From an uncultured Bacilli bacterium (lineage in GTDB: Bacteria; Bacillota_I; Bacilli_A; RF39; UBA660), in NCBI GenBank assembly GCA_947630305.1, contig CANRHC010000001.1, forward strand, positions 520 through 64,519: a stretch of 64,000 nucleotides of DNA, in the 5' to 3' direction. How positions within the stretch are numbered: position 1 is the stretch's first letter; each line of letters opens with the position of its first letter. The notes beneath the pieces were generated by a model. That model worked only from the letters and a program-made list of their open reading frames with translations. It made no database searches and was not told the DNA's origin. This document shows positions 259 through 59,300 of this stretch, one piece after another. A program made the position numbers and the translations under genes.

Positions 259-287
259 TTGACTAGCTAAAAACTAGGAGGTATAAT
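259..287 (+). promoter_or_regulatory. Sigma-A-type early promoter P1
   Basis: TTGACT(259-264)-17 nt-TATAAT(282-287). Spacer ends in AAAACTAGGAGG. RBS AAAGGAG and ATG at 317 lie downstream. Confidence 0.6.
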
Positions 288-316
288 TAATATAGAAATT
301 GAAAAGGAGATTAGTT

Positions 317-589
317 ATGACCTATTCTGAATTTGAACATAAATTATTTATACAAAATAATAGGTTAAGTAGTGATGTAATAGGTTGTTTTAGATTATGC
401 ACCTATCCCACTCAGAAAGTGTATGAAGTACCATTTGAGGATAAAAGAATGGTGGTAACATTCAGAAATTACTTTAACGATTTATCCGATTCTGTTATAG
501 CGGTCTATGATAAAAACGGTTACGGTTCTGAAATAACCTTTGATTTAGCTTGTGAAATTTTGAATAAATATTATAAAAATAATTTATAA
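317..589 (+). CDS. Early protein, unknown function (90 aa)
   Basis: ATG at 317 preceded by AAAGGAG. The ORF track's TTG start at 299 lies inside the RBS. Downstream of P1. Confidence 0.6.
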   Translation: MTYSEFEHKLFIQNNRLSSDVIGCFRLCTYPTQKVYEVPFEDKRMVVTFRNYFNDLSDSVIAVYDKNGYGSEITFDLACEILNKYYKNNL

Positions 590-595
590 AATACC

Positions 596-624
596 TTGAT
601 TAATGTTAAATTAGGAGGTATAAT
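596..624 (+). promoter_or_regulatory. Sigma-A-type early promoter P2
   Basis: TTGATT-17-TATAAT. Spacer ends AAATTAGGAGG. Confidence 0.55.
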
Positions 625-652
625 TAAATTGCAATAAGAAAAGGAGTTAAAA

Positions 653-952
653 ATGGAAATTACATCTGCTTTGGAATTAATACATAAATTAGAAATATTA
701 TTTAAAAACGGAAAAGCTGATAGAGAACTTATTGATAAAGATGGTTTGATATATATTTTAGAAGATAATAAAAATCAAATAATAGAATGTTATATTGCAC
801 CGAATTTTGATAAAACAATTCATTATGAGGATAGATTTATTATCAGACCGGCAATAAGAAATAACTGGGATTGTTATACTTATATTGATAATAACCAGTT
901 TATTGATTTAGTTAATGAGTTAGTAGAAAAATTAGTTGAAAAAAGAAGTTGA
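653..952 (+). CDS. Early protein, unknown function (99 aa)
   Basis: ATG at 653 with AAGGAG RBS, downstream of P2. Confidence 0.6.
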   Translation: MEITSALELIHKLEILFKNGKADRELIDKDGLIYILEDNKNQIIECYIAPNFDKTIHYEDRFIIRPAIRNNWDCYTYIDNNQFIDLVNELVEKLVEKRS

Positions 953-977
953 CAGCGTGAAAATCAAGAGGTATAAT
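949..977 (+). promoter_or_regulatory. Sigma-A-type early promoter P3
   Basis: TTGACA-17-TATAAT. The downstream UTR is nearly identical to that of P1 (ATAGAAATTGAAAAGGAG). Confidence 0.6.
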
Positions 978-1006
978 ATTTATAGAAATTGAAAAGGAGT
1001 TATAAA

Positions 1007-1510
1007 ATGAATAAAGAAAGATTTTTTGAAATTTACGAAGAGTACGGATTAGAAGGTGAGCCTGAAGGAGCTCAACCAGTTATTGAAAAATTATTTGATG
1101 AATGTGTCCCCAGTGTTGGTAAAGCGGACACAGTTTTTGGAGAAATCGTAAGGGCAATAAATCAAATTGGTTATAGATATTATAACGACGGCGACACGAT
1201 AGGATTTAATTATGGAGTAGAAACGGTCTCCCCCTCTGCTCGGTATTTACAATATCATACTAACGAAACAATAGCCTGTTTTATTAAAGGTATGGCAAAT
1301 TACGATTTTGAGGTTGATTATGAAGCCAAGGAATATGAACGTTTATTAGATACGTTAGTATGTTATATTTCAGATTTTCTTTTTGAAAATACCCAGTTAT
1401 TAGAAGTAGAAAATACCGAAAATTGTAGAAATTTTAAAGCTCAGGGCAAACCTTTTGATTTTGAAGATATTGATGAGGAAGCTGAGGAATACGAAGAAGA
1501 ATATTGGTAA
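1007..1510 (+). CDS. Early acidic protein, unknown function (167 aa, strongly acidic C-terminus)
   Basis: ATG at 1007 after AAAGGAG. C-terminus is FDFEDIDEEAEEYEEEYW. The track's start at 989 is a TTG inside the UTR. Confidence 0.6.
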   Translation: MNKERFFEIYEEYGLEGEPEGAQPVIEKLFDECVPSVGKADTVFGEIVRAINQIGYRYYNDGDTIGFNYGVETVSPSARYLQYHTNETIACFIKGMANYDFEVDYEAKEYERLLDTLVCYISDFLFENTQLLEVENTENCRNFKAQGKPFDFEDIDEEAEEYEEEYW

Positions 1511-1529
1511 ATTTAATTTAAAAAAGAAG

Positions 1530-1558
1530 TTGACAAGTTAAAGATCTTTTGATAAAAT
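1530..1558 (+). promoter_or_regulatory. Sigma-A-type early promoter P4 (cassette family B)
   Basis: AAAAAAGAAGTTGACAAGTTAAAGATCTTTTGATAAAAT: TTGACA-17-TAAAAT, followed by the conserved UTR ATAATTACAATAAAGA(A)AAGGAGTTA. Confidence 0.6.
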
Positions 1559-1590
1559 ATAATTACAATAAAGATAAAGGAGTTACGAAA

Positions 1591-1848
1591 ATGAAATCAT
1601 TAGAAAGACAATTAATTACAAACAATTTAAGTATGATTAAAGATTTAATTAATTCTTTACGTGAAAGTATAGACAATGAAAACAAGAAATATATTTATTC
1701 TGATATATTAAATTTAGAAAGAACCTTTGGCAATATAGAAGTCCAGTTAGATTTATTAAACGCTGACGCAGAATTAAAAGCTGATTATAATTATTTATTA
1801 AATAGATATTACGATTTATCAACGGATGCGGAAGAATTATTATTTTAA
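1591..1848 (+). CDS. Early protein, unknown function (85 aa)
   Basis: ATG at 1591 after AAAGGAG. The track's start at 1549 lies inside promoter P4. Confidence 0.55.
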   Translation: MKSLERQLITNNLSMIKDLINSLRESIDNENKKYIYSDILNLERTFGNIEVQLDLLNADAELKADYNYLLNRYYDLSTDAEELLF

Positions 1849-1866
1849 TTTTTGTTTAAATAATAC

Positions 1867-1895
1867 CTTGACAAGTTAAAGATCTTTTAATATAA
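1867..1895 (+). promoter_or_regulatory. Sigma-A-type early promoter P5 (cassette family B)
   Basis: TTGACAAGTTAAAGATCTTTTAATATAAT: TTGACA-17-TATAAT. Same cassette as P4 and P7. Confidence 0.6.
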
Positions 1896-1920
1896 TTACA
1901 ATAAGAAAAGGAGTTAGAAA

Positions 1921-2193
1921 ATGGATGAATTAAAAGAATATTTAAAAGATGGGAATTTAATATATGAATTAGATGTTATTAATGGATTTGTTGAACCACC
2001 TATAACTGCTTTAACTATTTATGATATTAAAAAACGAAAAGAAATTGATGCACTTATGGGATTTGCAGGTATGGATATTTCTGAAAATGGTATGGAAGAA
2101 TATATCAACATGGAAAATGTTGATATTTTAGGACAATTTAATTCAATAGAGGAATGTATTGGATATTTATATTTAAATCATAAAATTAGTTGA
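1921..2193 (+). CDS. Early protein, unknown function (90 aa)
   Basis: ATG at 1921 after AAAAGGAG. Own promoter P5. Confidence 0.6.
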   Translation: MDELKEYLKDGNLIYELDVINGFVEPPITALTIYDIKKRKEIDALMGFAGMDISENGMEEYINMENVDILGQFNSIEECIGYLYLNHKIS

Positions 2194-2203
2194 AAAAAAG
2201 TAT

Positions 2204-2231
2204 TGACATTTTAAATTAATGAGGTTAAAAT
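2204..2231 (+). promoter_or_regulatory. Sigma-A-type early promoter P6
   Basis: TTGACA-16-TAAAAT, followed by the family-B UTR ATAATTACAATAAAGAAAAGGAGTTAGAAAATG. Confidence 0.5.
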
Positions 2232-2261
2232 ATAATTACAATAAAGAAAAGGAGTTAGAAA

Positions 2262-2714
2262 ATGAACGGAAGACTTTATAGTTCAATAATGACAATTTAT
2301 GACAAGGAAACAGCGGATATTTTAAATGCGGTTGATTATAATATGTATGATATTACAGGTTTAGTTGATGAGGGATATTTAGATGCTTTAGCAAAGGGAA
2401 TTCGATACGGTATAATAGAAGACCGATATAAAGCACAGGATTTAATAAATACTGATACTAATAGTTATATAGCTGATGATTTTCCTGTAATACTAGGAGC
2501 TATTTTTTGGGATATTATAACATTCATGTCCCCTGAACGTTTTATTCAAGATGAAATTTTACCCAGTTTTAAAACACGTGAAAAATTAGATGAATACATG
2601 AAGGAAAACAATTTATCTAATAAAGAATTAATTAATAATTGGGAATGTAAAAATGAATATTTACAAGGTGTTTATCTTGATTATAGAGATGTAGTTTTAG
2701 TTGAAAAATTTTAA
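2262..2714 (+). CDS. Early protein, unknown function (150 aa)
   Basis: ATG at 2262 after AAAAGGAG. Own promoter P6. Confidence 0.6.
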   Translation: MNGRLYSSIMTIYDKETADILNAVDYNMYDITGLVDEGYLDALAKGIRYGIIEDRYKAQDLINTDTNSYIADDFPVILGAIFWDIITFMSPERFIQDEILPSFKTREKLDEYMKENNLSNKELINNWECKNEYLQGVYLDYRDVVLVEKF

Positions 2715-2733
2715 ATTTTGTTTAAAAAAGAAG

Positions 2734-2762
2734 TTGACAAGTTAAAGGTCTTTTGATAAAAT
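2734..2762 (+). promoter_or_regulatory. Sigma-A-type early promoter P7 (cassette family B)
   Basis: AAAAAAGAAGTTGACAAGTTAAAGGTCTTTTGATAAAAT. Near-identical to the P4 cassette. Confidence 0.6.
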
Positions 2763-2792
2763 ATAATTACAATAAAAACAAAGGAGTTAAAA

Positions 2793-3221
2793 ATGTTAAA
2801 ACCTGAATTAGATGAAGCTTTAGAATATTACTACTGTGATGATGTAACCTGTTTACTACATTATATTGACTGGTATTTATTTAGTTTTATTAATGATGAA
2901 GATTTTGTAATTACAACAATTAACCTGTTCAAACAGCATAAAATTTCAAGTGAAGATGTTGATAATATGTTTTATGAAATGGAGCCTGACCTATATTGTA
3001 CTACTGCTGATATTGACAACGGTTCTATTTATCTAATGGGACAAGATGAATTTATAGAAGAATTTATTTTACCTAATTATGAGGACGAGGAAGAAATGGA
3101 AAATAAGTTAGGTAATACAACTTATCAAATTGTATCTAATTATCTTGAACATGATTATAATTTTACTAGAGATATGGTATATCTAGATGATATAGAATCT
3201 GTTTTAATCGTTGAAAATTAG
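2793..3221 (+). CDS. Early acidic protein, unknown function (142 aa)
   Basis: ATG at 2793 after AAAGGAG. Own promoter P7. Confidence 0.6.
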   Translation: MLKPELDEALEYYYCDDVTCLLHYIDWYLFSFINDEDFVITTINLFKQHKISSEDVDNMFYEMEPDLYCTTADIDNGSIYLMGQDEFIEEFILPNYEDEEEMENKLGNTTYQIVSNYLEHDYNFTRDMVYLDDIESVLIVEN

Positions 3222-3234
3222 TTTAAAAAAGGAG

Positions 3235-3263
3235 TTGCCATTTTTTAAACTAAATGGTATAAT
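3235..3263 (+). promoter_or_regulatory. Sigma-A-type early promoter P8
   Basis: TTGCCA-17-TATAAT. Confidence 0.5.
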
Positions 3264-3293
3264 AAAAGTATAAATTAAAGGAGTTTTACGTTA

Positions 3294-3584
3294 ATGAATC
3301 CAAATAAAGACAGATTAAAAAGTTTAATGTTAAAAGTAGATTCTTTTGTTAATAAAGTTACTGATTTACAAAATAAGATTAATAATGATGAAATCGGTCT
3401 AGCTGAGTTATTGAGTATTCTAAGCGACCTCAATTTTAAGTCAGGTGAGATTGAGAATTTATTAAAATATAATAATTATTCTGATTATTTGTTTAATAGT
3501 TATTTTGATAAATGGATTGACTTTATGAGTATACAAGAAAGCGTTTTAAAATCTATCGGCAGAAAAAATGTAAAAATTATTTAA
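3294..3584 (+). CDS. Early protein, unknown function (96 aa)
   Basis: ATG at 3294 after AAAGGAG. Own promoter P8. Confidence 0.55.
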   Translation: MNPNKDRLKSLMLKVDSFVNKVTDLQNKINNDEIGLAELLSILSDLNFKSGEIENLLKYNNYSDYLFNSYFDKWIDFMSIQESVLKSIGRKNVKII

Positions 3585-3592
3585 ATAAAACC

Positions 3593-3621
3593 TTGACAAG
3601 TAATAAAAGACCATGTATAAT
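3593..3621 (+). promoter_or_regulatory. Sigma-A-type early promoter P9
   Basis: TTGACA-17-TATAAT, followed by a TATAAGTA...AAAGGAGTTA UTR related to family B. Confidence 0.6.
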
Positions 3622-3652
3622 ATAAGTATAAAATAAATTAAAGGAGTTACAA

Positions 3653-3934
3653 ATGATTAGTTACGATCAATTTAAACGTGAAATAAATCTAACTATAATA
3701 AAAATGGCAAATCTTAAAAACAGGTTTGAATTAGGAAATTACAAACATATTTATGAATTAGCTAGTAAAGTTAAAGAACAACAAGGTTATATGAATGGAA
3801 TTATTAGATGTGCTAATGGAATCTTTTATGGTGTTGACGGATATTCTGATTTAGAGCGTGCTTATAATATGGCTGAAAATGAGTTTGAATGGGTACACTA
3901 TAATATTATGGATTTTTTAGATAAAAGGAGCTAA
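3653..3934 (+). CDS. Early protein, unknown function (93 aa)
   Basis: ATG at 3653 after AAAGGAG. Own promoter P9. Confidence 0.55.
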   Translation: MISYDQFKREINLTIIKMANLKNRFELGNYKHIYELASKVKEQQGYMNGIIRCANGIFYGVDGYSDLERAYNMAENEFEWVHYNIMDFLDKRS

Positions 3935-3936
3935 AA

Positions 3937-4146
3937 ATGAACAAGGACGAGTACATGGAATATAAACTAAAATATCTTGAAACACTAAAGAAAGAATTAC
4001 AAGGTGTACTGGATAGAATGTATGATGATTATAATTTTACTGAAAAGAAATATAACGATTTATTAGTTAGTAAAGTTACTGAAATGTTTCACAGTTTAAA
4101 ATGTTTAGCATATTTTCCTGAGTTTGAATTACCTGCGGAAAATTAA
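3937..4146 (+). CDS. Early protein, unknown function (69 aa)
   Basis: ATG at 3937 two nt after the upstream stop, with AAAAGGAG RBS. Probably translationally coupled. Confidence 0.5.
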   Translation: MNKDEYMEYKLKYLETLKKELQGVLDRMYDDYNFTEKKYNDLLVSKVTEMFHSLKCLAYFPEFELPAEN

Positions 4147-4175
4147 AATTAATTAAAAAAAGTTTAAAAAAACAC

Positions 4176-4204
4176 TTGACAATATCATTTATAGATTATA
4201 TAAT
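4176..4204 (+). promoter_or_regulatory. Sigma-A-type early promoter P10
   Basis: TTGACA-17-TATAAT, followed by TATAAGTACAATAAAGAAAGGAATTAGAAAATG. Confidence 0.6.
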
Positions 4205-4233
4205 ATAAGTACAATAAAGAAAGGAATTAGAAA

Positions 4234-5430
4234 ATGAAAAAATTTAGTTTTAATGTAAAAGACATGTTAGAAGTATTAAACGGTATTAAATTAAATAAAG
4301 CAAAGAATGGTCACGTATTAACAATTAAAGATAAGAATATAGTTTTAACAGCTCACGGAAAAGACGGATTAAATACAATCTACACTTACTCATCCGATAT
4401 AGAATATAAAGACGAACAAATGGGAAATACAACCAGTTTTGACTTTTGGAAATTCTATGATGCTATAAAAGATTTATCAGATATTGGAGACCGTTGTAAA
4501 GTAGAGGTTGAAAATGAAACCGCCACTTTAACAGTTGATTATTTAGGTATTAAAATTGACGTTTTAGATTATGATTGTAATGTAGTAAATTCTGACATAG
4601 AGGATAAACTTTATGAAAACAATCTCTTTTATTTACCGATTGAAAATAAAAAACAATTAATCAACAATCTAGAAACATTAAAGAAGTTTACCGCAGTTAA
4701 TGAAAATCAAATACCTATTATAACAGGCGTTAAAGTTGAAGTGAAAGACAATACCTGCCGATTTATAGCAATAGATGGCTTTAGATTTATTACTATTGAT
4801 TATAAGATTGAACGACCAAATAGCAGTACTATCTCCCAAGAGGATTTTGAGTTTGTATTAAATAAAAGTCAACTTGAATCTTTAGTTAAAATTTTAAGAA
4901 ATAATAAAACAGCTAGTCAAATTGAGTTTACTTTAAACAAAGATAATTTAGTTGATATATTAGTATTTAAAGAATTAAATTTAGGTTGTAATTATATAGG
5001 TATTCAAAGTAACGCTTTAGAAGGTAACTTTTTTGACTATACAACTGTTATACCAAAAAAGAAAACTCACTCACTTAAACTTAATAAGAATAATCTAGTT
5101 AAAACTACTAAAGTTATCAATAAAGCGAAATCTGATGATTTAAGTTTAATAGTATTTAATAAAACGGATAATAGCTTATTACTAACTGATAAGAAAGATA
5201 AAATTAAATCAACCTTTTCTGATATTGATAACTTAAGTAACTATACGGACGTAAAATTTGGTATTAACTCAAGTTATCTGTTAAACAGTTTAGATAACAT
5301 AAATTCAAGTGAGGTAACACTAGACTTTAAAGCGGAAGATAATACACTTATTGAACCTTTAGTTATTAACGATAATAATAAATATAGCAATAACAATTAC
5401 TATATTTTACCAGTTAGAATGACTGCTTAA
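4234..5430 (+). CDS. dnaN: DNA polymerase sliding clamp (DnaN/beta-clamp-like), 398 aa
   Basis: Three-domain length. Central ...IPIITGVKVEVKDNTCRFIAIDGFRFITID... resembles the beta-clamp domain II start. C-terminus ...YYILPVRMTA resembles the bacterial beta-clamp C-terminus ...VVMPMRL. Own promoter P10. Confidence 0.55.
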   Translation: MKKFSFNVKDMLEVLNGIKLNKAKNGHVLTIKDKNIVLTAHGKDGLNTIYTYSSDIEYKDEQMGNTTSFDFWKFYDAIKDLSDIGDRCKVEVENETATLTVDYLGIKIDVLDYDCNVVNSDIEDKLYENNLFYLPIENKKQLINNLETLKKFTAVNENQIPIITGVKVEVKDNTCRFIAIDGFRFITIDYKIERPNSSTISQEDFEFVLNKSQLESLVKILRNNKTASQIEFTLNKDNLVDILVFKELNLGCNYIGIQSNALEGNFFDYTTVIPKKKTHSLKLNKNNLVKTTKVINKAKSDDLSLIVFNKTDNSLLLTDKKDKIKSTFSDIDNLSNYTDVKFGINSSYLLNSLDNINSSEVTLDFKAEDNTLIEPLVINDNNKYSNNNYYILPVRMTA

Positions 5431-5452
5431 ACATTTTAAATTCAAGATTAAA

Positions 5453-5478
5453 TAGGAGAATAAACTCCTATTTTTTCT
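5453..5478 (+). terminator. Rho-independent terminator after the clamp gene
   Basis: TAGGAGAATAAACTCCTA hairpin followed by TTTTTTCTG. Confidence 0.6.
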
Positions 5479-5498
5479 GTTTAATTAGGAGGAAAATC

Positions 5499-6323
5499 AT
5501 GTTAGATAAAATGAAAAAACTAGTTGAGAACAGAGGACTTTCAACTTATGAAATAGTACATAATACCGGCTGTGTTTCACGTACTAATATTTTAGAACCG
5601 GTTATAAACGGAGATAAAGAAATTACCAGTACTAACTTTAATAACTTATCAGCTTTTGCGCGTGGACTTGGTGTTACTATTGAGGATATTTTGGAGGATT
5701 ATGACTATGATGGAACAACAGCTCAAATACTTAATATTGAACGTACGGTTAAAAGATTTAAAAAGCATCAACAAAACGGTATAGTTTTAACAGAAAATGA
5801 GGACGGTGGCTATGTTATCGGTGCGAGATATGAGGTAAACAAATATGAAAATTTTCCTATTCTGAAAAAAGATTTTGAGATAATAGAAAAGAATAAATTC
5901 CATTCAGAACAATTAACAGAACCGATATATCTATTAAACAGAAGATGGTTAAATACCAGTAGTAAAAACACTTATTTAACTAAGAATAATACCCTTACTA
6001 ACCTCGCCCCAAAACTAAATAAATATTCTATGGCGTTCTTTATTTACTCACCTATTTATGATAATAACGATTTAATCGGTGGGGATTTTAAACTGGCTAT
6101 ATCTGTATTGAATAAAGAAGGCTTTTTTAGCTTTAGTGAGGTATATGGCTGTGAATGGCTTAAAACAGAAGAAACACGCCACATAGTTTATTATAAAGCA
6201 TACAATGAACATTTATACGTTACTCCTGAAAGAATAGAAGAATGGGAAAAAGAAGAAATTTCAGAACTTGAATATTGGAAAGCAATTTATACTCAATTCT
6301 TTAAATTTGGTATAAGTAAATAA
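5499..6323 (+). CDS. HTH (XRE-like) DNA-binding protein with a C-terminal domain of unknown function, 274 aa
   Basis: N-terminal LVENRGLSTYEIVHNTGCVSRTNI...LSAFARGLGVTIEDIL is a helix-turn-helix pattern. AGGAGG RBS. Confidence 0.5.
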   Translation: MLDKMKKLVENRGLSTYEIVHNTGCVSRTNILEPVINGDKEITSTNFNNLSAFARGLGVTIEDILEDYDYDGTTAQILNIERTVKRFKKHQQNGIVLTENEDGGYVIGARYEVNKYENFPILKKDFEIIEKNKFHSEQLTEPIYLLNRRWLNTSSKNTYLTKNNTLTNLAPKLNKYSMAFFIYSPIYDNNDLIGGDFKLAISVLNKEGFFSFSEVYGCEWLKTEETRHIVYYKAYNEHLYVTPERIEEWEKEEISELEYWKAIYTQFFKFGISK

Positions 6324-6328
6324 TCAAG

Positions 6329-6366
6329 AATTAACCTATATTAATTTATAGGTTAATTTTTTTTTG
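6329..6366 (+). terminator. Strong rho-independent terminator closing the early block
   Basis: AATTAACCTATA-TTAATTT-ATAGGTTAATT hairpin followed by a run of nine T. Confidence 0.75.
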
Positions 6367-6374
6367 CCCAATGC

Positions 6375-6590
6375 GTGAAAATGTAAACGTTTTATTTTAC
6401 ACGTATTTAATACTTTTTCTGTCTTTGTATGTTATTATACTTATTTAATCTATCCCCCATTATTTTGTAAATTAAAGCGTTTTATACCATAATTGCTAAT
6501 TATACACCTATTTGATATTATTAATGTTTAGTTTTACTTATTTTAGGTTATAAATGTAAACGTTTTATTTTAACCGTATTTAAAAGATTT
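6375..6590. repeat. Direct repeat AATGTAAACGTTTTATTTTA(c/a)ACCGTATTTAA, two copies
   Basis: Copies at about 6380-6412 and 6552-6584. The core AAACGTTT is palindromic. Confidence 0.7.
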
Positions 6591-6837
6591 TACCCTTACC
6601 TATATTAGAATACCTTTCAAAATTAATACCCTTTATTTTGCCGATTTGAGACTACACGATTTTAAGCTTTCCATTTGCAAATATCAGCTTTCTATGATAT
6701 ACTTATTATATCAAAATAGAATTACTATGAATAATAGGATAACTCTATTCAAGACCTTTGAAATTTTAAATCGAGAATTTTTAATTTTCTGATGGGAGAA
6801 TAAAAAATGTCAGATATTAATGCGTCTTTTTACACTG

Positions 6838-7062
6838 GTCAAAATTCAATTACGATTCGGTGGTCAAAATTCGTTTAACATCTGATGGTCAAAATTCAAT
6901 CGTCATGGTCTGTATTAAAAAATGGTAAAATTTTAAACACCACCACTCCGACCTTTGACTTTTGACAGCTGATAAAATTCTGCCAGTCCGTCCAATTGAG
7001 AGTTAATAAAATTCTGCCACTCCGTCTATTTGACAGCTAGGAATTTTCTGCCACTCTGCCCA
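6838..7062. repeat. Iteron arrays: 3x GGTCAAAATTC then 3x AATTCTGCCA(C/G)TC(C/T)G(T/C)C
   Basis: GGTCAAAATTC at about 6838, 6860 and 6886. AAAATTCTGCCAGTCCGTCC, AAAATTCTGCCACTCCGTCT and TTTTCTGCCACTCTGCCC at about 6974, 7007 and 7035. TTGAC(A/T) elements lie between them. Confidence 0.75.
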
Positions 7063-7196
7063 TCTGAAAGAAAAGAAAAAAAAAGAATAAAAAGAATATA
7101 CTACCAATGCGTTTAGTGTCATCAAAAGGTGATTGGTGACAAAATACCGCTATTTGGCACGAAAGAATCCACACTCACAAAATACCACCATGCGTG

Positions 7197-7231
7197 AAAA
7201 AAAAAGTCTGTACACATTTCTGCATACAGAC
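7197..7231 (-). terminator. Rho-independent terminator (minus strand) ending the leftward middle operon
   Basis: Minus strand reads GTCTGTATGCAGAAATGTGTACAGAC followed by a run of nine T. Confidence 0.55.
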
Positions 7232-7286
7232 CATATCTCAACTTCAAAATGTTTATTAATACCCTTTAAAGTTTATCCTTTCTTAT

Positions 7287-7625
7287 CTAATACCATTCTA
7301 ACGCTATCTTGTCTAATTCCGTCATATCCAGCAACTCAAGTCCGTACTGATGTGCTTCATACATTGTACTCTCACTCATTGGAAATTTTTTCAGTATTTC
7401 TTTAAACTGCATGCCCACAATGTATCTTGAAACCAGTACTGCCCTCTCCCTTGCAGGAAGTTTGTTGACCGCACGTTCAAACGCCTCTAACTCATTTAAA
7501 AGTTCCGTTGCCCTTTCATGCAAATAATCAACTAATTCTTGAGTTTCATCCATTACTTCTATCCACCGGTCATCAGGTCTTTTATGAATGTTCCCTGATG
7601 GCATCCCTGTTAGAATACTGGTCAA
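7287..7625 (-). CDS. ArpU-like / sigma-70 region-4-like transcriptional regulator (112 aa), candidate late-gene activator
   Basis: C-terminal ERAVLVSRYIVGMQFKEILKKFPMSESTMYEAHQYGLELL matches the sigma-70 region 4 HTH pattern. Size is typical of the ArpU/RinA-type phage late activators of Firmicutes. Confidence 0.5.
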   Translation of the reverse strand: MTSILTGMPSGNIHKRPDDRWIEVMDETQELVDYLHERATELLNELEAFERAVNKLPARERAVLVSRYIVGMQFKEILKKFPMSESTMYEAHQYGLELLDMTELDKIALEWY

Positions 7626-10344: not shown

Positions 10345-11223
10345 TTATCTTTCCCATACACTAATAAAAGTCCTTTTTGGATTTTCAGCTTTCTTAATGT
10401 ATCTTTTTTCTTTTTTTATTGCCTCGTAAATATCTTTTAGATACGGTACATTGTTTAACATATAATCAGAAAATGTCTGCCATTCAGAAAGCTTATGCCC
10501 TGCACGTTGATTGATTATATTCAGCAGGACTTCATAATTACCGCTCCATGTACGAGTTTGCATATAACTCTGTGGTAATAACTCGTTTATAGCGTGCCAG
10601 TATTTTCTGTCATTAGTTTTTAGGTAAAACACTCTAAGTGAATTTAGTAGATTAACAAAATATTCTTGAAAATATTCTTCGGGAGTCATACATTGTCCTT
10701 CATATTCCAAACCGCTGAACCACATATCATAATCTTCATATTCATTGCACTCAAGCCAGTTCGTCTCTTCACCGTCAATACTTAAGAAGTTATTCACACT
10801 AAAATCCTCTATCTTAAATGGTTCTTTTGTCATAGTATGCATTGTTGATTCCGCATTAGTAACCGTACCAATCTGATATTTATCCATTTGCTTCCACCAG
10901 AAAAGAGGTGCTTTAATATCCATAACTACTGGAAGTTGTCTGAGTACTTTTCTATGACTGGGGTCTCCTGCTTTACAGAGGTTGAGGAGTAGTTGTTTGT
11001 CTTTTTTACCGATTATTAAACCGCATAACTCTCCGCTCTTTTTATAGCATTTATTATCGCTATAATAAGAAGAGCAATTGTAACAATCTTCTCTAGTTAC
11101 TTCATAAGTGAGTTTATTTCCACTATCACTCTTATCCCAACTCTTAAACGCATTTCTCATACCGTGAATAACCACGTTAAACTGGTCCGGACTTGGTGTT
11201 ACTAAGTTAGACACCTCTAACAT
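10345..11223 (-). CDS. Cys-rich hypothetical protein (292 aa) flanking the nucleotide-metabolism cluster
   Basis: Long ORF carrying CYNCSS...CYKKSGELCG. No recognisable catalytic motif. Confidence 0.45.
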   Translation of the reverse strand: MLEVSNLVTPSPDQFNVVIHGMRNAFKSWDKSDSGNKLTYEVTREDCYNCSSYYSDNKCYKKSGELCGLIIGKKDKQLLLNLCKAGDPSHRKVLRQLPVVMDIKAPLFWWKQMDKYQIGTVTNAESTMHTMTKEPFKIEDFSVNNFLSIDGEETNWLECNEYEDYDMWFSGLEYEGQCMTPEEYFQEYFVNLLNSLRVFYLKTNDRKYWHAINELLPQSYMQTRTWSGNYEVLLNIINQRAGHKLSEWQTFSDYMLNNVPYLKDIYEAIKKEKRYIKKAENPKRTFISVWER

Positions 11224-11861: not shown

Positions 11862-12905
11862 TTAACAGGTTTCCATAATCAAATTACCGAGGTATTCTGC
11901 AATATTCACTGTTACTGCATTACCAGCCTGTTTATATAACTGCGTATTAGAATTAACTTTTTCAGCTTTCTCAAACTGTTCATCAGTAAATCCTTGTAGT
12001 CTAAAACATTCACGTGGAGTTAAACGTCTTATGTTGTATCTTTCACCTTCATAAACAAATACTCCAAACTGACTATTTTGTTCAGGGACTGTATAAAGTC
12101 CAGTTTTAGCACCTAATCCACCACTTAAACTTTTAAGCGCACAAGATAATTCATTGCTGTCATATACTCTATTTGCTTGAGCACCTGGAATTATCTGTTT
12201 AAGTCTTTTAGATTCGGGAATGGCTACATTTTGTGAACCTTTATAATCTCTAGACATTAAAGCTCTTGATATACTATCTTCTGTCAGTACAATATCCTGA
12301 CTATACTTGCCCTGAATTAATGTTTGTATTTCAGAGCCTTTTGAACAATTTTGTCTATCTGTTCCTGTGAGAGGTAAAACTTTTCGTCTACCTCTTTCTC
12401 TAAGATGTCCGATAATGAATACACGTTCTCTGTTTTGTGGTACACCAAAGTCTTTGGAATTAAGCAATACCCATTCTGTGTCGTACCCTGTTTCTGATAT
12501 TTCAGAGAGAACCTCGGTAAATGCTTCCCCTCCCTCAATTGACAACAGGTTCTTAACATTTTCAACGAGTAACCATTCGGGTCTATCTTTGGAGTCTTTG
12601 TTTTTGAGTAAGCTAATGATGTTGTAAAAGATTCCACTTCTTTCTCCAGTAAGTCCTTTGTGTTTTCCTGCAATTGAGATGTCTTGACATGGGAATCCAA
12701 AACACCATAGATCTGCTTTTGGTATTTCATTTGATTCAACTGTTCGGATGTCTGTTGCAGTCCATTCCCCTGTTGTGTCATACATTTCTTCATAGCTTTT
12801 TCTGACATATTCATCTATCTCCACATATCCAATACAGTTAAATCCAGCTTTTTCAAGCCCCGATCTAAATCCACCGATACCTGAACATATGTCAATAAAA
12901 TTCAA
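11862..12905 (-). CDS. DNA (cytosine-5)-methyltransferase
   Basis: Motif I DICSGIGGFRSG (FxGxGG). Motif IV GFPCQDIS (PCQ catalytic cysteine). Motif VI ENVKNL. Confidence 0.85.
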   Translation of the reverse strand: MNFIDICSGIGGFRSGLEKAGFNCIGYVEIDEYVRKSYEEMYDTTGEWTATDIRTVESNEIPKADLWCFGFPCQDISIAGKHKGLTGERSGIFYNIISLLKNKDSKDRPEWLLVENVKNLLSIEGGEAFTEVLSEISETGYDTEWVLLNSKDFGVPQNRERVFIIGHLRERGRRKVLPLTGTDRQNCSKGSEIQTLIQGKYSQDIVLTEDSISRALMSRDYKGSQNVAIPESKRLKQIIPGAQANRVYDSNELSCALKSLSGGLGAKTGLYTVPEQNSQFGVFVYEGERYNIRRLTPRECFRLQGFTDEQFEKAEKVNSNTQLYKQAGNAVTVNIAEYLGNLIMETC

Positions 12906-17090: not shown

Positions 17091-18932
17091 CTATTCATTA
17101 ATTTCCTCCTTCACATAAACTTTTGCACTCATACCACCGTTGATATTCTTACGTTGCACCTGTTTGACAGTAAATCCTCTATCTAAAATAGCCTCTTTAA
17201 GTCTGCCTTTACGCTGTACTGTTTCCCCATTGGTATCGCACCAGTCCTGATACTGGTTATATATTTGAGGTGGTCTTTTAAACTCGATTTCATAATCATT
17301 TAACATTTCTAAAAACTCAATCGTACTGTCATTCTCTCTGTGGTATTCAGAAGTAAATTTATCCACAACCTCACATTGAATAAAATCTTTTTGCTTATAG
17401 ATATTCTTATAAGCATTTACTATGAGTGTAATCCAGTACTCAAGGGCTTCATCTGTTGTGAGTTTAGTTATAAAATCTGTTTCAATTCTCTCCGGTACAT
17501 AGTACATCGGACACCACCGAACCCGTCTTTTATAAGAATAATCCTTATCGAATGTTTTAACTTTATGATTTGAGGTAAATATAAGAGTAGGATTGATTCG
17601 GGCATTAAACGGATTTTCATATAACCGTCTAATCTGAATATTATCTCCACTCGATAGATTCTTGAGGACTTTCATTTGGCTTTTGTTGATTGCCTCGTTT
17701 TGAATATCGTCACCGAGATTGGCTAGTTTTCCCACTAAATTAGCGAGATACTTTTCATCTCCTAACTCTTGAATACTGGCGGTGGAAACATTTTTATCAT
17801 TTAATATTTTCGAGATAATCTGTAAAAGTGTTCCCTTACCATTACCGCCCCGACCTACAAATATGAAAAATTTACTTAATGCCCTTTTAAATTCTCTGTT
17901 GACTATTAGACTCGTTGCAATAATCTCTAGGATATATTCTCTATATTCAGGGTCGCCACCTGTCAGATTGTTTAAATAATCCTCAACTACCTGAACAGGT
18001 TCCATATCAGGCTTGTAACTCAAATTAATAAAGTACGGGGTAAAATCAGAATATCCATAGGGGTAAAACTCACCCTCGAAGAGATAACCATTTTGTAGTT
18101 TGATTTTAAATTCTGTTTCATCATCTACTAATGGCGCACGCATTTTCATTTGCTTTACAACCTCTTCAACAAACCTTGATTTCTGTCCTATACAGTATTC
18201 ATAAACCATTCTGTCTAAAACATTCTGGTCGTTTACGTATTGAATCCCGTCATAAAAGAATAGTGAATTATGATGCATGACCACCCTTTTATCTCTCATA
18301 ATAAGGTCTGCGATATAGGTTTCACCGTCTTTCTCAGGGATAATATCCTCTTCCCTCGAGACCGTTTCAAATTCTCGCTCATCTAAGGGTTCATCAAAAA
18401 TGTAGGTATTGATAAATTTAAGTAACTTTTTTGTCTGCCCCAGTTTAGCGATTAATCTTTTATGACTATGCAAAGCTTCATTTCTATGGTCGCCCTCACT
18501 CATTCCCATTAAATCCCGTTTAGTGGGAACAGCTTCTAGGTATTTTGGGAAGTTCTCCCTTATTCCAAAATTTTCAACCTCTCGAAGTTTTCCATAATTC
18601 TTTACTGTAATAGCGTAGCAGTTATCATAGTGTTTATACTCAAGAGGGAATCCTAAAGCGCATATACCTTTTGCCCGTTTATAGTTATTACGTTTTTTAA
18701 AGTAAAGGTGCGCTCCCCTGTCAGTCCAAACAATTTGAGTTTTAATATTAAAAAAATCAATCATATCCTGAATTGTTTCTTTATTCAGGTCGTCTATGTC
18801 AACTATGAAATCATCAGGCTCTAAAATATAGCCTGCGTCATCAAAATCATCCGGACTGTCGCATATAATCTGATTTTCAAGTTTTTTTCTTGTAAACTTC
18901 TGCCCAGGTTCAAATTCAACATATTTAGTCAA
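17091..18932 (-). CDS. DNA primase-polymerase / SF3 helicase (prim-pol N-terminus plus P-loop D5-like C-terminus), 613 aa
   Basis: N-terminal ...VWTDRGAHLYF... is prim-pol-like. Central Walker A GRGGNGKGT. Confidence 0.7.
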   Translation of the reverse strand: MTKYVEFEPGQKFTRKKLENQIICDSPDDFDDAGYILEPDDFIVDIDDLNKETIQDMIDFFNIKTQIVWTDRGAHLYFKKRNNYKRAKGICALGFPLEYKHYDNCYAITVKNYGKLREVENFGIRENFPKYLEAVPTKRDLMGMSEGDHRNEALHSHKRLIAKLGQTKKLLKFINTYIFDEPLDEREFETVSREEDIIPEKDGETYIADLIMRDKRVVMHHNSLFFYDGIQYVNDQNVLDRMVYEYCIGQKSRFVEEVVKQMKMRAPLVDDETEFKIKLQNGYLFEGEFYPYGYSDFTPYFINLSYKPDMEPVQVVEDYLNNLTGGDPEYREYILEIIATSLIVNREFKRALSKFFIFVGRGGNGKGTLLQIISKILNDKNVSTASIQELGDEKYLANLVGKLANLGDDIQNEAINKSQMKVLKNLSSGDNIQIRRLYENPFNARINPTLIFTSNHKVKTFDKDYSYKRRVRWCPMYYVPERIETDFITKLTTDEALEYWITLIVNAYKNIYKQKDFIQCEVVDKFTSEYHRENDSTIEFLEMLNDYEIEFKRPPQIYNQYQDWCDTNGETVQRKGRLKEAILDRGFTVKQVQRKNINGGMSAKVYVKEEINE

Positions 18933-19186: not shown

Positions 19187-20983
19187 TTAAATCCAAAGCT
19201 TTCGATATTTTTCCTCAGCTAGATTTACATAATAATCTACATCTATAACTTCTTTAAAATTTTTAAAATCCCGTAAATCACCGTTGTAAACGTACATAGA
19301 TTCCGGTGCGGTAGGAAAATACTGCGGATTGCCCTCAGCCTTTTTCTTCTTGAGCAGTACACCGTCTTTAGTAGCAAAAACTCGATTAACCTTTTGATAG
19401 AGGTTACCGTCCTCATCTACTGTTCCGATATACGTCCTGCCACATTGAAGTATGTACTGAAACAGAATAGGGTAATCTAGATGTCCTACAACCGTATCTA
19501 CAAAATCTATGTTGTAAACTATCTTATTTACAAGGCATTGACTGATAATTCCGTTCGTATTCGTACCCGTCCATGTAACACCTGCAAAAGTATTAAACGG
19601 GTCTGATACATAATCCACAGGGTCGTAATATTTGTTTAAATCACCACCCTTGACCTTGATTTTCTGATTATAGTCAATCGCTACATAGTTATTAACGTCC
19701 TTTTGATACCATTTTCTAAACTCTGATAATTCAAGTTCAAAACCATAATCCTCTTCCCATTGCTCTTTAATGACCTCAAAATCGGTTGATGCGCCTGTGA
19801 ACGCTACACCATCAGTATTGATGTTTATAAGCGTATAACCTGCGCTGTATAACCGACAGCATAGGTCGTATAGAGCAATCTGTCCGTAAAAACAGACACT
19901 CATAGCACCAAATGGGTTATAGAGTTTGGAGTACTCATTTTTCATAAGTCCATACGTTGAATTAATAATGAGTTTTAGAGCATTAGATAAAATAGGGTCG
20001 CTGTGTTTAATAGCCATGCGCTGATTGACAATTTCACGATATTTTGAGGTTGCATTTCCCAGTACATCTAATTTAAGTACGATATTAGGGTACAAAGAGG
20101 TAACATCTAGAAGAAATACGTTATTAAATTCCTTTGCACCATTTTCATTGATTCCATGAAGTCCGCCATAGGAAAATTCAATTTTACAGTCAAGCTCGTA
20201 AACAGAACATTTTTTAATCCCCATCTCAGGGTCTTTCCACATATCCCATACCTCCTGCGGTACGAGTGAGAGCATTTCCTCATCTTTTTCAGAATTGGGA
20301 GATACCCTCCAACTATCCCATCGCTTAATCGGTTTATTACCTGTTAAGATACTCGCTGTAATGGTCGTTGTATTCCATTTTAAAGCTTGGTATTTAACAT
20401 TTTCCGGTAACATATCAACCACCATTAGCTTTGGGATAAAATATGATTTCCACCTTAATTTGAAAGCATTTATTGTAGCCTGTACGTCCTGTTCACAATA
20501 CTTGACTGTTTCAAAATATTCTTCTTTAGTTAATGCTCTGTTAATATCAAAGGGTACGGTGGACTCATCTATTGAAAGTCCAATATTAGCTTCTATTTTC
20601 TTTAAACTTGAGTGTGCGACGTTAATCTGTTGAAAAACGTCAAGGGAGAAAATACTGTCATCAATGGTACAGTAGTAATCCTCACCTGCTATTATCTGGT
20701 CGTTAATAGCTTTAATAATCTTTAACTTGTCTGTGTTTTTATCGCTAATCCGTATCATGTTAGTTAGGATTAAATCATCATAATGATAATTGTTATATCC
20801 GACTAACACTTTACCCTTGATATAATCAGATAGACCTAAAAAGTTATTATGGTATATTCGCATGGTCTCGCCTGTTATGTCTTTAAAGACAATCATGGCG
20901 TCCTCTGCGAAAACCTCTATATCGTAAAACAGAAAATCCTTGAAACCATCATCTTCGGCTTTAAGCAATTTCTGAATATCCAT
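19187..20983 (-). CDS. Family B DNA polymerase with 3'-5' exonuclease domain (598 aa)
   Basis: ExoI FYDIEVF. Motif A LDVTSLYPNI (Dx2SLYP). Motif B KLIINSTYG (Kx3NSxYG). Motif C-like NINTDGV. Confidence 0.8.
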   Translation of the reverse strand: MDIQKLLKAEDDGFKDFLFYDIEVFAEDAMIVFKDITGETMRIYHNNFLGLSDYIKGKVLVGYNNYHYDDLILTNMIRISDKNTDKLKIIKAINDQIIAGEDYYCTIDDSIFSLDVFQQINVAHSSLKKIEANIGLSIDESTVPFDINRALTKEEYFETVKYCEQDVQATINAFKLRWKSYFIPKLMVVDMLPENVKYQALKWNTTTITASILTGNKPIKRWDSWRVSPNSEKDEEMLSLVPQEVWDMWKDPEMGIKKCSVYELDCKIEFSYGGLHGINENGAKEFNNVFLLDVTSLYPNIVLKLDVLGNATSKYREIVNQRMAIKHSDPILSNALKLIINSTYGLMKNEYSKLYNPFGAMSVCFYGQIALYDLCCRLYSAGYTLININTDGVAFTGASTDFEVIKEQWEEDYGFELELSEFRKWYQKDVNNYVAIDYNQKIKVKGGDLNKYYDPVDYVSDPFNTFAGVTWTGTNTNGIISQCLVNKIVYNIDFVDTVVGHLDYPILFQYILQCGRTYIGTVDEDGNLYQKVNRVFATKDGVLLKKKKAEGNPQYFPTAPESMYVYNGDLRDFKNFKEVIDVDYYVNLAEEKYRKLWI

Positions 20984-21796: not shown

Positions 21797-22599
21797 TCAA
21801 GGTCTATTAATTCATATTCAACATTTCCTAACTTAAAGAGTTCTGTTACCTTTGCAAAATCGCTTTCTTTAATCTTTAAGTAAAGACAAGGTTCAGGGGG
21901 AGTTTCTGTTGGTCTAACCTTACTGCTGTCTAATGCTTTTTTAACCCCGTCTTTTTCTTTTTTAAGATTGTCAAAATAGGTTATGGTATCTGATACAGAA
22001 CCATTGTTTAAATACTCATTTACAACGGTATCTCGATTTAGGTTTGCTTTATCTGCAAAAACGACACAAGCTGAAATATCATCTCGTCTTTGTTCAAAAA
22101 ACTCAACCATCTCACCCTCAATTTTAGTAAGGGATTTACGCTTGTTCAGATATTCCTTTTTCATAAAGTCATCGAATGGATAAAGCTGTTCAACCTCTTT
22201 ACCACCGTATATCTTCAAGCGTTTATCGAATAACTCTTTAATCTGAGCTTTTTTATCAGCTCTTGTCTTATCTTCTAATTCTTTAACCTGTCGTCTTATA
22301 TGATATTCATAAGCACCTAAACGCCTATCAATTTCTTTAACCTGCGCATCAAGGGTTTCAAGAGGTTTCATATATTCTCTTTTAAAAGCCATTTTCTCTT
22401 CATGGATGTTTTTGAAGACTTTTCTGCATTGTGCGACAAGTTTTTTATTTTCCTTTACATTTTCATCCGTAACATCAACCGACAGGAGATAAGTACCAAG
22501 TTTATCAAGTTCTGCTAGAAGCTCATCATAATCAACTATACCGACTTTACGGTCATGTAGTTGAATTTCATGAGTTTCCGGTATAATTAATTCATACAT
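21793..22599 (-). CDS. Hypothetical coiled-coil protein (268 aa)
   Basis: Long ORF, Lys/Glu-rich in its centre. Confidence 0.45.
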   Translation of the reverse strand: MYELIIPETHEIQLHDRKVGIVDYDELLAELDKLGTYLLSVDVTDENVKENKKLVAQCRKVFKNIHEEKMAFKREYMKPLETLDAQVKEIDRRLGAYEYHIRRQVKELEDKTRADKKAQIKELFDKRLKIYGGKEVEQLYPFDDFMKKEYLNKRKSLTKIEGEMVEFFEQRRDDISACVVFADKANLNRDTVVNEYLNNGSVSDTITYFDNLKKEKDGVKKALDSSKVRPTETPPEPCLYLKIKESDFAKVTELFKLGNVEYELIDLE

Positions 22600-24814: not shown

Positions 24815-25441
24815 ATGTACGGGAAGAGATTAAAGCAATTAAGAAAACAGAGAGGGTTAAAGCAGGTTGAGTTGTCTAGAATAAGTGGGGTATCTGTTAC
24901 CAATCTGACAAGATATGAGAATACAGAATACAACATTGTAAAATCCAATACAGTAGAAAAACTGGCAAAAGCCCTCGGTACAACCAGTGATTACCTTTTG
25001 GGGATAACTGATTTTGAAAATTTAGAGGTCGTTGAGTTAAACAAAACAGATACTCTGCCTGTGCCAGTTTATGGTACGATTCCTGCCGGACGTCCAATAG
25101 AGGCTCTTGAGGTTGATGGTGGTTATATCAATATAGACAAAAGTAATTTCCGTGGCGGCAAACAGTTTATCGGTCTGAAAGTCAAGGGTAATAGTATGTA
25201 CCCTTTTTATATAGATGGAGATACGGTTATTGTTGAAATTACCGCAGATGCTAAAAGTGGCGAGGATGTTGTAGCCTATATCGGTTATGACCATGAAGCA
25301 ACATTGAAACGTTTTCATATAAAAGACGACCACGTTGAATTAGAGCCATTAAACAGAGAATACCCTGTGCGCTCTTATTATAAAACAGATATTCCTGTTC
25401 GTATTTTAGGTGTTGTAAGGGAATTGAGGAGAAACATATGA
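24815..25441 (+). CDS. CI/LexA-like repressor (HTH plus S24 peptidase domain), 208 aa
   Basis: N-terminal LKQVELSRISGVSVTNLTRYE helix-turn-helix. C-terminal GNSMYP...LKRF carries the Ser/Lys dyad. Confidence 0.8.
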   Translation: MYGKRLKQLRKQRGLKQVELSRISGVSVTNLTRYENTEYNIVKSNTVEKLAKALGTTSDYLLGITDFENLEVVELNKTDTLPVPVYGTIPAGRPIEALEVDGGYINIDKSNFRGGKQFIGLKVKGNSMYPFYIDGDTVIVEITADAKSGEDVVAYIGYDHEATLKRFHIKDDHVELEPLNREYPVRSYYKTDIPVRILGVVRELRRNI

Positions 25442-26547
25442 AAATCAGTAAGGTAAAGGGTAAGGACTCCTATCGGGGGTATGTAAGAAAGCCTGACGGG
25501 GGTTATAAACAAATATACGGTAAAACTAAAAAAGAGGTTCGGGAAAAAGCCGAATCTCTATCTTTTGATATAAAGACTGGAAAATTTGTAGAAAATAATA
25601 AAATAAGTTTTGAGGACTGGTGTAATGAATGGGTTGATAATTATTTGATTAATGTAAGTTTACTCACCAAGAGAACCTACAAGAAACATATGAAAAACCA
25701 TATAATCAAAGAATTTAAAAATGTTAAATTACAGAATCTCACCCATAATCAAGTCCAACGTTTCATTCAGAAGTTAAGTCAAAATTATGCTCCTAAAACT
25801 GTCCGCAATATTTACCTTGTTCTCCACCGCTCATTATCTGATGCAGTAAAAAACGGTTTTATTTCCTTTAATCCCTCTGATGATATTATCCTGCCAAAAC
25901 TGGTTAAAGAAGAAATTAAAGTACTCGAGTTAGATGAAATAGATACCTTTATTAATCTAGCCTATGAATTAGTACCGGAGTATGCCGATTGTTTAGAATT
26001 TCTCCTGTTTACCGGTCTCCGTATTTCTGAATTTATCGGTCTAACCATTGATAACTATAATTCTGAAACCAAAACCCTTACAGTAAATAAACAGTATGAC
26101 AGAGTGGATAGAGTTTATATTCCGCCTAAATATGGTGCGACAAGGGAGTTTAGGTTATCAGAAAGTGCAGTTAAGATTGTAGAAAACAGAATAAGTAAAA
26201 TAAATAAAAGACGTGAAAAATTTCCAAACTACAATGATGAGAATATTTTGTTTTTAAACCCTGAATCAGAAAGAATTACACAACAGACTTTAAGAAAGAA
26301 ATTAAAGATAGTAACTGCTAAATTAGGTAAAGAAGATTTTAGATTGCATGACTTAAGACATACCTTTGCTACTCTCACAATAGCTAGTGGTACAGAAATA
26401 AAAACATTACAGAAGATATTAGGTCATACGGATGCCAGTTTTACAATGAATGTTTATGCACATTCTACTGAAATAATGAATAAAATTGCAGCTGAGAATT
26501 TAGAAAATTTTAGGAAAAATAGTTACAGAATAGTTATAGGTGATTAA
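25438..26547 (+). CDS. int: Tyrosine integrase/recombinase (369 aa)
   Basis: Catalytic residues: R in GLRISE, HDLRHTFAT, LGHTDASFTMNVYAH (His and Tyr). Start overlaps the repressor stop. Confidence 0.85.
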   Translation: MKISKVKGKDSYRGYVRKPDGGYKQIYGKTKKEVREKAESLSFDIKTGKFVENNKISFEDWCNEWVDNYLINVSLLTKRTYKKHMKNHIIKEFKNVKLQNLTHNQVQRFIQKLSQNYAPKTVRNIYLVLHRSLSDAVKNGFISFNPSDDIILPKLVKEEIKVLELDEIDTFINLAYELVPEYADCLEFLLFTGLRISEFIGLTIDNYNSETKTLTVNKQYDRVDRVYIPPKYGATREFRLSESAVKIVENRISKINKRREKFPNYNDENILFLNPESERITQQTLRKKLKIVTAKLGKEDFRLHDLRHTFATLTIASGTEIKTLQKILGHTDASFTMNVYAHSTEIMNKIAAENLENFRKNSYRIVIGD

Positions 26548-59073: not shown

Positions 59074-59093
59074 ATAATCACTCAATTAATATC

Positions 59094-59164: not shown

Positions 59165-59300
59165 ATAATCACTCAATTAATATCAAAGGCTCTTTTGAAC
59201 AGAGAGCTAACTGTACAAAAAAGAAGTTAATAAGTCGTCCTGTGTCCTATCCTTGTATCAATTTCATTTGCCCTTTTGAAAAGAGGACTAACTTTTCATT

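Follow-up and report, generated by a model that had tools for sequence, protein, structure and literature searches.

A highly divergent DnaN-type beta sliding clamp predicted outside the replication operon of a myovirus-type phage

The stretch of DNA analyzed here (64,000 nt of contig CANRHC010000001.1 from an uncultured Bacilli bacterium, hereafter the window; the positions of the phage block, polymerase and primase are all window positions) comprises most of a gut phage genome of about 65 kb, myovirus-type and temperate by annotation. Our subject is a plus strand gene near its left end whose product, as judged from predicted fold and homology, is a real and very divergent DnaN-type beta sliding clamp. 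The open reading frame (ORF) was found exactly where a preliminary description of the sequence had placed a protein of the size of a three-domain clamp, and it is not a chance frame, because it stays open for 1.2 kb in DNA of 26% G+C. The gene belongs to a block of plus strand genes (299..6323) that converges on a long minus strand operon; the clamp gene, its signals, its neighbors and the two principal replication genes are listed in Table 1.

Homology to DnaN extends over essentially the whole protein. The Pfam DNA_pol3_beta N, central and C models matched it with E values of 3e-8, 2e-7 and 1e-5 and with bit scores of 34.3, 31.5 and 25.6, against gathering cut-offs of 24.4, 27 and 27 (the last match is thus just below its cut-off); the N model in fact aligned to clamp domain II, and the central model matched residues 151-245, in keeping with the earlier remark that a central block resembles the start of that domain. 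The NCBIfam model TIGR00663 (dnaN) covered residues 9-395 (E = 2.5e-22), and phrog_947 (DNA polymerase processivity factor) covered residues 2-397 (E = 9e-22). The TIGR00663 score of 79.3 bits compares with an equivalog cut-off of 137.65, which on sequence grounds makes the protein a homologue of DnaN below the equivalog level. Comparison of a clamp profile (the window protein and its nine closest relatives) with a cellular DnaN profile in hhalign gave a probability of 99.9% and E = 1e-35 over 357 columns. An AlphaFold2 model computed from a 55-sequence alignment (mean predicted local distance difference test [pLDDT] score 87.3, predicted template modeling [pTM] score 0.88) contains six beta-alpha-beta-beta-beta units in three domains, with approximate limits at residues 1-120 (I), 130-260 (II) and 275-398 (III). 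The top Foldseek matches to this model in the PDB were beta clamps only, aligned at full length (template modeling [TM] scores 0.71-0.83, E about 1e-23), and included those of Bacillus subtilis (4TR6, 6E8D), Clostridioides difficile (7YBD), Eubacterium rectale (3T0P) and Escherichia coli. The DnaN-like identity first proposed from the sequence is therefore borne out by full-length similarity to the Pfam, TIGR00663 (below its cut-off) and phrog_947 models and by a three-domain clamp fold in the predicted structure.

Table 1. Positions of the clamp gene, its signals and the phage features discussed in the text
Feature	Window position	Strand	Remarks
Array of small orphan genes, presumed early block	259..4146	+	About 26% G+C; promoter cassettes
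69-aa helical protein with C-terminal YFPE[FY]xLP tail	3937..4146	+	Backbone gene; no Pfam or PHROG match
Clamp-gene promoter, sigma-70-type	4176..4204	+	TTGACA-17-TATAAT, 12/12; preceded by A/T-rich UP-like stretch
Clamp ribosome-binding site	4219..4226	+	AAAGGAAT; AAAGGAA; about 8 nt ahead of ATG
Divergent DnaN-family beta sliding clamp gene (predicted)	4234..5430	+	ATG start; 398 aa; C-terminal end of product NNYYILPVRMTA
Hairpin and T run between clamp gene and next gene	5450..5473	+	9 bp, 3 G-C pairs
274-aa protein with helix-turn-helix (HTH)-like N-terminal domain and C-terminal beta-sheet domain of unknown fold	5499..6323	+	Downstream of clamp
Hairpin with 15-nt arms and T run	6326..6361	+	Directly past 274-aa gene
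Sigma-70 region-4/DUF1492 (ArpU-like) protein	7287..7625	-	Last gene of replication and nucleotide-metabolism operon
D5-like primase-helicase	17091..18932	-	phrog_864, DUF5906
Compact family-B DNA polymerase (PolB)	19187..20983	-	598 aa; phrog_1252; ExoI DIE, SLYPN, KLIINSTYG (KxxxNSxYG), NTDG

Close relatives of the clamp are few. A word-indexed search of 5.8 billion proteins returned one identical copy (present on a handful of ENA and Logan contigs of up to 64,986 bp) and cellular DnaNs at no more than 26% identity. An exhaustive HMMER scan recovered a small set of relatives that are full-length (369-412 aa) and 27-36% identical (P0016-P0021, P0023, P0024 and P0026), beyond which the list consisted of hundreds of ordinary DnaNs. 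Every one of the about ten relatives in this subfamily (23-36% identity) lies on a metagenomic contig, with its ORF intact and conserved; three further related contigs were assigned to rabbit-gut metagenome-assembled genomes (MAGs) labelled Bacilli or Eubacteriaceae, although such bins are unreliable for short phage contigs. Two scans of IMG/VR yielded no clamp relative, a scan of genome contigs with the clamp protein gave no match, and in GenBank phages megablast found no DNA match and tblastn with the clamp only one weak protein match.

Bacterial clamps hold polymerases and the delta subunit of the clamp loader through a peptide-binding cleft together with their C-terminal residues. We compared residues at these sites in a MAFFT alignment of E. 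coli DnaN (a reference sequence 100% identical to 1MMI_A), the subfamily and 45 cellular homologues. G182-F183-R184-F185 of the window protein correspond to E. coli G174-H175-R176-L177, N345 and Y348 to N320 and Y323, and P375 to S346 (a proline in most cellular DnaN). The C-terminal L392-P393-V394-R395-M396 aligns with M362-P363-M364-R365-L366, in agreement with the likeness to DnaN ends noticed in the preliminary description. By alignment, all or almost all of the ten members of the subfamily keep these residues, and the hydrophobic cleft between domains II and III, including its C-terminal residues, is to judge by them retained.

The charge pattern of a clamp that encircles DNA appears to be retained as well. 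Basic channel helices on an acidic protein are the usual signature of such clamps; the window protein is acidic overall (net charge -7, pI 5.3), as is the protein in the subfamily (pI about 5.1), and the six predicted channel helices of the window protein carry a net charge of +12 per monomer, compared with a mean of +8.1 in the subfamily and +4.9 in cellular DnaN. By these sums the channel is, if anything, more basic than that of cellular DnaN. We also considered a channel devoid of basic charge, the equivalents of R24, R73, K198 and K235 being replaced, and rejected it, because other lysines more than compensate in the summed helix charges.

Residues whose conservation is specific to the subfamily concentrate at the known head-to-tail dimer interface, on its two helices and its edge strand. 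Helix 2 of domain I has a mean net charge of -1.2 in the subfamily versus +1.5 in cellular DnaN (with D102, Y103 and D109 conserved), and helix 5 of domain III has +3.8 versus +0.5 (with K290 and K297 conserved); position 73 of the window protein is K, not E. We infer that the dimer interface has been rebuilt in a charge-complementary form, with domain I acidic and domain III basic, and has not been lost.

The clamp gene had also been credited with a strong promoter and a strong terminator of its own. The former stands as a sequence feature, with a perfect match to consensus, whereas the latter is overstated: hairpins like the one that follows the gene are expected about once in the region by chance (as estimated by a scan), and this one may act as a partial terminator or attenuator. 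Promoter strength is not kept in the subfamily, an upstream match of at least 11/12 being present in only one of seven relatives.

Consensus promoters are a property of the block as a whole, which has a G+C content of 26% versus 36% for the region from 7287 to 62589. A cassette of about 90 bp, made up of an A/T-rich UP-like element, TTGACA, 17 nt, TA(T/A)AAT, a conserved leader and AAAGGAG, stands ahead of nearly all of its genes. Between 259 and 4204 there are ten promoter cassettes, four with an exact TTGACA-17-TATAAT; in the entire window this exact sequence occurs five times (0.07 expected), four of them inside the block. The only exact copy outside, at 29207-29235 (-), is aimed at the lysis genes 28614-27014. 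The cassette copies that start at 1530, 1868 and 2734 share the spacer agttaaagatcttttga, and the palindrome AAAGATCTTT within it may be an operator. Two block proteins (2262-2714 and 2793-3221) are weakly similar to each other (BLASTP E = 3e-4, 30% identity over 60 residues), which suggests local duplication of a gene together with its promoter cassette. The small proteins of the block had no PHROG or Pfam match, and PADLOC found no defense-system match for the clamp. The term 'host-takeover block' used in the preliminary description is a reasonable analogy for this presumed early arrangement, and a temperate phage would need a way to silence such a block in its lysogen. One further ORF of the block (1549..1848; 99 aa) contains QLDLL at residue 66, close to the beta-clamp-binding consensus QL[SD]LF; as a single match to a loose pattern, in a probably helical region, it may be due to chance.

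The genes on either side of the clamp appear to be part of a shared backbone. We compared gene contexts on the contigs of P0016, P0017, P0019, P0020 and P0023 and on the three MAG contigs, which share an architecture in which a one-directional array of small genes runs up to a convergent gene for a sigma-region-4-like protein. An HTH-like protein of 264-274 aa is encoded by the last plus strand gene in every relative; its conservation (36-67% identity) exceeds that of the clamp. The structural model of the window's 274-aa protein is of moderate confidence (pLDDT 66.9); Foldseek gave no match in the PDB below E = 1, and Pfam, PHROG and PADLOC gave none. The 69-aa gene always lies just upstream of the 274-aa gene or of the clamp; its product was considered as a clamp partner and rejected, since a hidden Markov model (HMM) search showed that it travels with the 274-aa gene, in the clamp-less locus as well. 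As in the window, the clamp lies between these two genes on four of the contigs (L007, L011, L015 and L016). It is elsewhere in the block on L006 and L013, L012 stops just past it, and L017 has no clamp. The neighbors are therefore backbone genes and not dedicated clamp partners, since they are present with or without it; the clamp itself is, from these comparisons, a frequent but dispensable passenger of the block, helpful and not essential.

The hairpin past the 274-aa gene probably marks the end of the plus strand block. Between it and the minus strand operon is a non-coding gap of 963 bp (6324-7286) with iteron-like direct tandem repeats (3 x 25 nt at 6836-6910; 3 x 34 nt at 6961-7079), in which Rfam found no match and which could serve as a replication origin or in packaging. 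The equivalent gap measures about 0.9 kb in L007 and L017 and only about 50-160 bp in L006, L013 and L016. The sigma-region-4-like gene on its far side is followed by a strong terminator with a 12-bp stem (7232-7205, -), and a tblastn search of GenBank phages with its product (E = 1e-3) gave no match.

The remainder of the window is annotated as follows. Genes for tRNAs, terminase, portal, capsid, sheath, tape measure, baseplate and endolysin lie on the minus strand, and the interval 24815..26547 contains the genes for a CI/LexA-like repressor and a tyrosine integrase. The minus strand operon from 24494 down to 7287 encodes a metal-dependent hydrolase, a DUF1351 protein, PolB and the primase-helicase, then a dCTP deaminase/dUTPase-like protein, a ribonucleotide reductase and methyltransferases, and last the sigma-region-4-like protein. 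The clamp gene lies on the strand opposite to this module, 13.8 kb from the gene for PolB and 11.7 kb from that for the primase-helicase, as had been recognized at the outset. Homologues of PolB with 30-48% identity were found by tblastn in small siphophages of Listeria, Staphylococcus, Enterococcus and Leuconostoc. No candidate for a clamp loader or another AAA+ protein was found among the annotated phage ORFs.

Several features of these minus strand regions merit separate mention. Four DNA methyltransferase genes (11862-12905, 22587-23405, 50440-51279 and 51303-52184, one of the C5-cytosine type) suggest heavy investment against restriction. The large subunit of the ribonucleotide reductase (12915-16262; 1115 aa) is matched by PHROG at residues 58-796 only, and its approximately 300 C-terminal residues could be an extra domain or an intein. 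The 292-aa product of 10345-11223 belongs to phrog_6721 (unknown function); its Pfam match to Thy1/ThyX stays below threshold (E = 0.0065) but hints at a possible divergent form of flavin-dependent thymidylate synthase. A cluster of tRNA genes upstream of the terminase region (58996-59501; Glu-TTC, Asn-GTT, Ser-TGA and Leu-TAA) has anticodons that read A/T-ending codons, consistent with the AT-rich genome.

On balance we consider it probable, with modest confidence, that the protein functions as a ring clamp, which the host loader places on DNA and which serves phage replication. Under this model, unmodified host RNA polymerase would transcribe the gene strongly and early, alongside the neighboring small genes. 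Two copies would join head to tail through the re-wired interface into a ring that is unlikely to mix with host DnaN. Since no loader was found among the annotated phage ORFs, we invoke that of the host, which would place this ring on primed phage DNA through the conserved cleft, and the ring would then act as a phage-dedicated platform for processivity and as a tool belt, for a polymerase that could be either PolB or a recruited host Pol III/PolC.

Several observations weigh against this reading, the first group of which concerns the ring itself. The positions of I272 and L273, the hydrophobic dimer core of E. coli beta, are occupied by L, I, V or F in nearly all cellular homologues, and mutation of this pair (I272A/L273A) renders E. 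coli beta monomeric. In the window protein the pair is replaced by K297/A298 (MAFFT) or by a gap and A298 (hhalign), and nine of the ten members of the subfamily have a basic residue at the I272 position; without this hydrophobic pair, any ring would presumably form through the charge-complementary residues. The lysine richness of an AT-rich genome may, in addition, inflate the helix charges. The second group concerns the polymerase. The clamp gene is outside the replication operon and is dispensable, L017 retaining the flanking backbone genes without it. In Listeria phage P35, a comparable hydrolase-PolB-primase module likewise occurs without a DnaN homologue. The preliminary description had suggested looking for a clamp-binding motif at the C-terminus of PolB; a motif scan of the proteome found none at either end of the enzyme, and tblastn alignments run end to end, showing no terminal extension relative to the homologues from clamp-less phages. 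The sole motif match in PolB, QIALY, is internal and falls in the stretch that separates polymerase motifs B and C. An atypical or internal clamp-binding motif is possible, and PolB is a candidate client of the clamp, although nothing in the sequences ties the clamp specifically to it.

The alternative that we take most seriously, although we regard it as unlikely, is that the protein is a decoy for host takeover: an abundant early product whose intact cleft titrates host clamp-binding proteins (delta, PolC/DnaE, and repair or regulatory factors) and so shuts down host replication. Its position among small orphan genes that nearly all have a consensus promoter cassette would suit such a role, as would a conserved cleft combined with loss of the hydrophobic dimer core and a PolB devoid of a terminal clamp-binding motif. 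Phages are, moreover, known to attack the DnaN/delta node: gp168 of Twort and gp240 of G1 target DnaN, and gp8 of N4 targets the delta subunit (PMC3594737). These inhibitors are, however, small polypeptides and not 398-aa copies of the clamp, and a phage that is temperate by annotation would risk harm to its lysogen from an unregulated toxic decoy. The basic channel helices on an acidic protein are needless for a pure decoy, which their retention somewhat disfavors, and conservation of all three domains and of the interface-lining residues across a fast-evolving subfamily points in the same direction.

A bolder reading seems to us distinctly less probable still. Here the protein would be an orthogonal, phage-private ring, kept from mixing with host DnaN by its charge-reversed interface and able through its intact cleft to borrow the host loader, that is active after a neighboring early protein has disabled the host clamp, or else a replication-coupled activator for the sigma-like late regulator. 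The first of these ideas can be put more narrowly, as a replacement clamp whose re-wired interface renders it orthogonal and insensitive to the inhibitor, and in that form we find it rather implausible. The clamp does share its block with many small orphan genes of early type, its interface charges differ from those of cellular DnaN, and small phage polypeptides that inhibit DnaN are on record (PMC3594737). No inhibitor was found: the 69-aa upstream protein, present in the clamp-less relative too, is not linked to the clamp, and the near-consensus QLDLL of ORF 1549..1848, although suggestive, is inside a small protein predicted to be helical and is possibly a chance occurrence.

Coupling to transcription, in which the DNA-loaded clamp would activate late genes through the sigma-region-4/ArpU-like protein or the 274-aa HTH-like protein, strikes us as very unlikely. 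Clamps do act in late transcription in T4 (gp45, with gp33 and gp55) and in Mu (MuC, with host beta; PMC12867686), and the clamp, HTH-like and convergent sigma-like genes are syntenic in distant relatives. Both neighbor genes, however, also occur without the clamp, the clamp is elsewhere in the block in L006 and L013, and the motif scan found no canonical clamp-binding motif in either protein. The sigma-like proteins have a C-terminal tail of the type LDxIxLxW[YF], which we considered as a clamp-binding tail and rejected, because it does not track the presence of the clamp (it is present in clamp-less L017 and absent from clamp-bearing L016). Least probable of all, to the point that we give it little weight, is a moron expressed in the lysogen to alter host replication or repair or to exclude other phages: a promoter of its own, a hairpin, an orientation opposed to that of the flanking operons, dispensability among relatives and the presence of a repressor and an integrase in the phage speak for it, but no PADLOC defense model matches it and its promoter design is common to the whole 6-kb block, so that it is no isolated moron.

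The main points of interest are the apparently rebuilt dimer interface, the accessory status of the gene and its separation from the polymerase. Our searches of the open-access literature turned up no functional work on any beta clamp encoded by a phage, and the subfamily has value as a test case on three counts: the clamp is accessory (present or absent among close relatives), it lies apart from the polymerase with its own consensus promoter, and the partner-binding cleft appears to have been kept while the dimer interface was rebuilt. Should the ring prove orthogonal to the clamp of the host, the phage would own a private replication platform yet use the host loader, and the two would offer a natural pair of beta clamps that do not mix, of use in engineering. 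Were the decoy true, it would represent a new way to shut off host replication; were either the orthogonal ring after takeover or the activator of a late regulator true, it would be the first DnaN-type counterpart of the role of T4 gp45.

Comparison with known systems places the protein as follows. With bacterial DnaN (TIGR00663; E. coli 1MMI, B. subtilis 4TR6, C. difficile 7YBD) it shares the three-domain fold, a similar length, the cleft, the C-terminal LPxR and the combination of an acidic protein with basic channel helices. It differs in having only 14-19% identity in structural alignments and about 30 additional residues in loop insertions, in being encoded by a phage outside any dnaA-dnaN context, and in its replaced hydrophobic dimer-core residues and changed interface charges. 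With gp45 of T4, which serves that phage's family-B polymerase and activates late transcription (PMC12867686), it has in common that it is a sliding clamp encoded by a phage. The T4 clamp is, however, a two-domain trimer of the PCNA type and not a three-domain clamp of the dimer type, and T4 has its own loader (gp44/62) and a clamp-binding tail at the polymerase C-terminus, neither of which was found in the window phage. The genomic setting recalls the host-takeover module of SPO1, a group of small early genes that in many cases have strong sigma-A promoters and ribosome-binding sites of their own, much as the window block has small genes with individual host-type promoters and ribosome-binding sites. 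The SPO1 module is in the terminal redundancy of a lytic phage and to our knowledge contains no clamp, whereas the window phage is temperate by annotation.

Clamps of the DnaN type are widely annotated in phages: 156 GenBank phage records have a DnaN homologue (Arthrobacter, Mycobacterium, Nodularia, Thermus, Ralstonia and other phages), and at least 40 viral clamp models in BFVD, some titled 'Beta clamp protein', match the predicted clamp structure at E < 1e-12 with 8-18% identity. Judged by sequence, the subfamily described here is a new branch of a type of gene already annotated in many phages, and it resembles the other phage homologues (phrog_947) in being a DnaN-type clamp in a tailed phage without an obvious clamp loader. 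Placement varies among them. In Arthrobacter phage Hestia the gene (gp71) is inside the replication module, beside a helicase, a single-stranded DNA-binding protein and an initiator, whereas the window gene is in a separate, opposite block. Psychrobacillus phage Perkons (MT325768) is a 137-kb phage with terminal repeats, and its clamp is not close in sequence to the window subfamily; yet its ORF14, annotated as DNA polymerase III subunit beta and located 6.7 kb from the left end of the genome, is likewise a DnaN homologue of a Firmicute phage within a long array of small hypothetical genes that run in one direction (ArdA among them), and Perkons is the closest precedent for the placement of the clamp.

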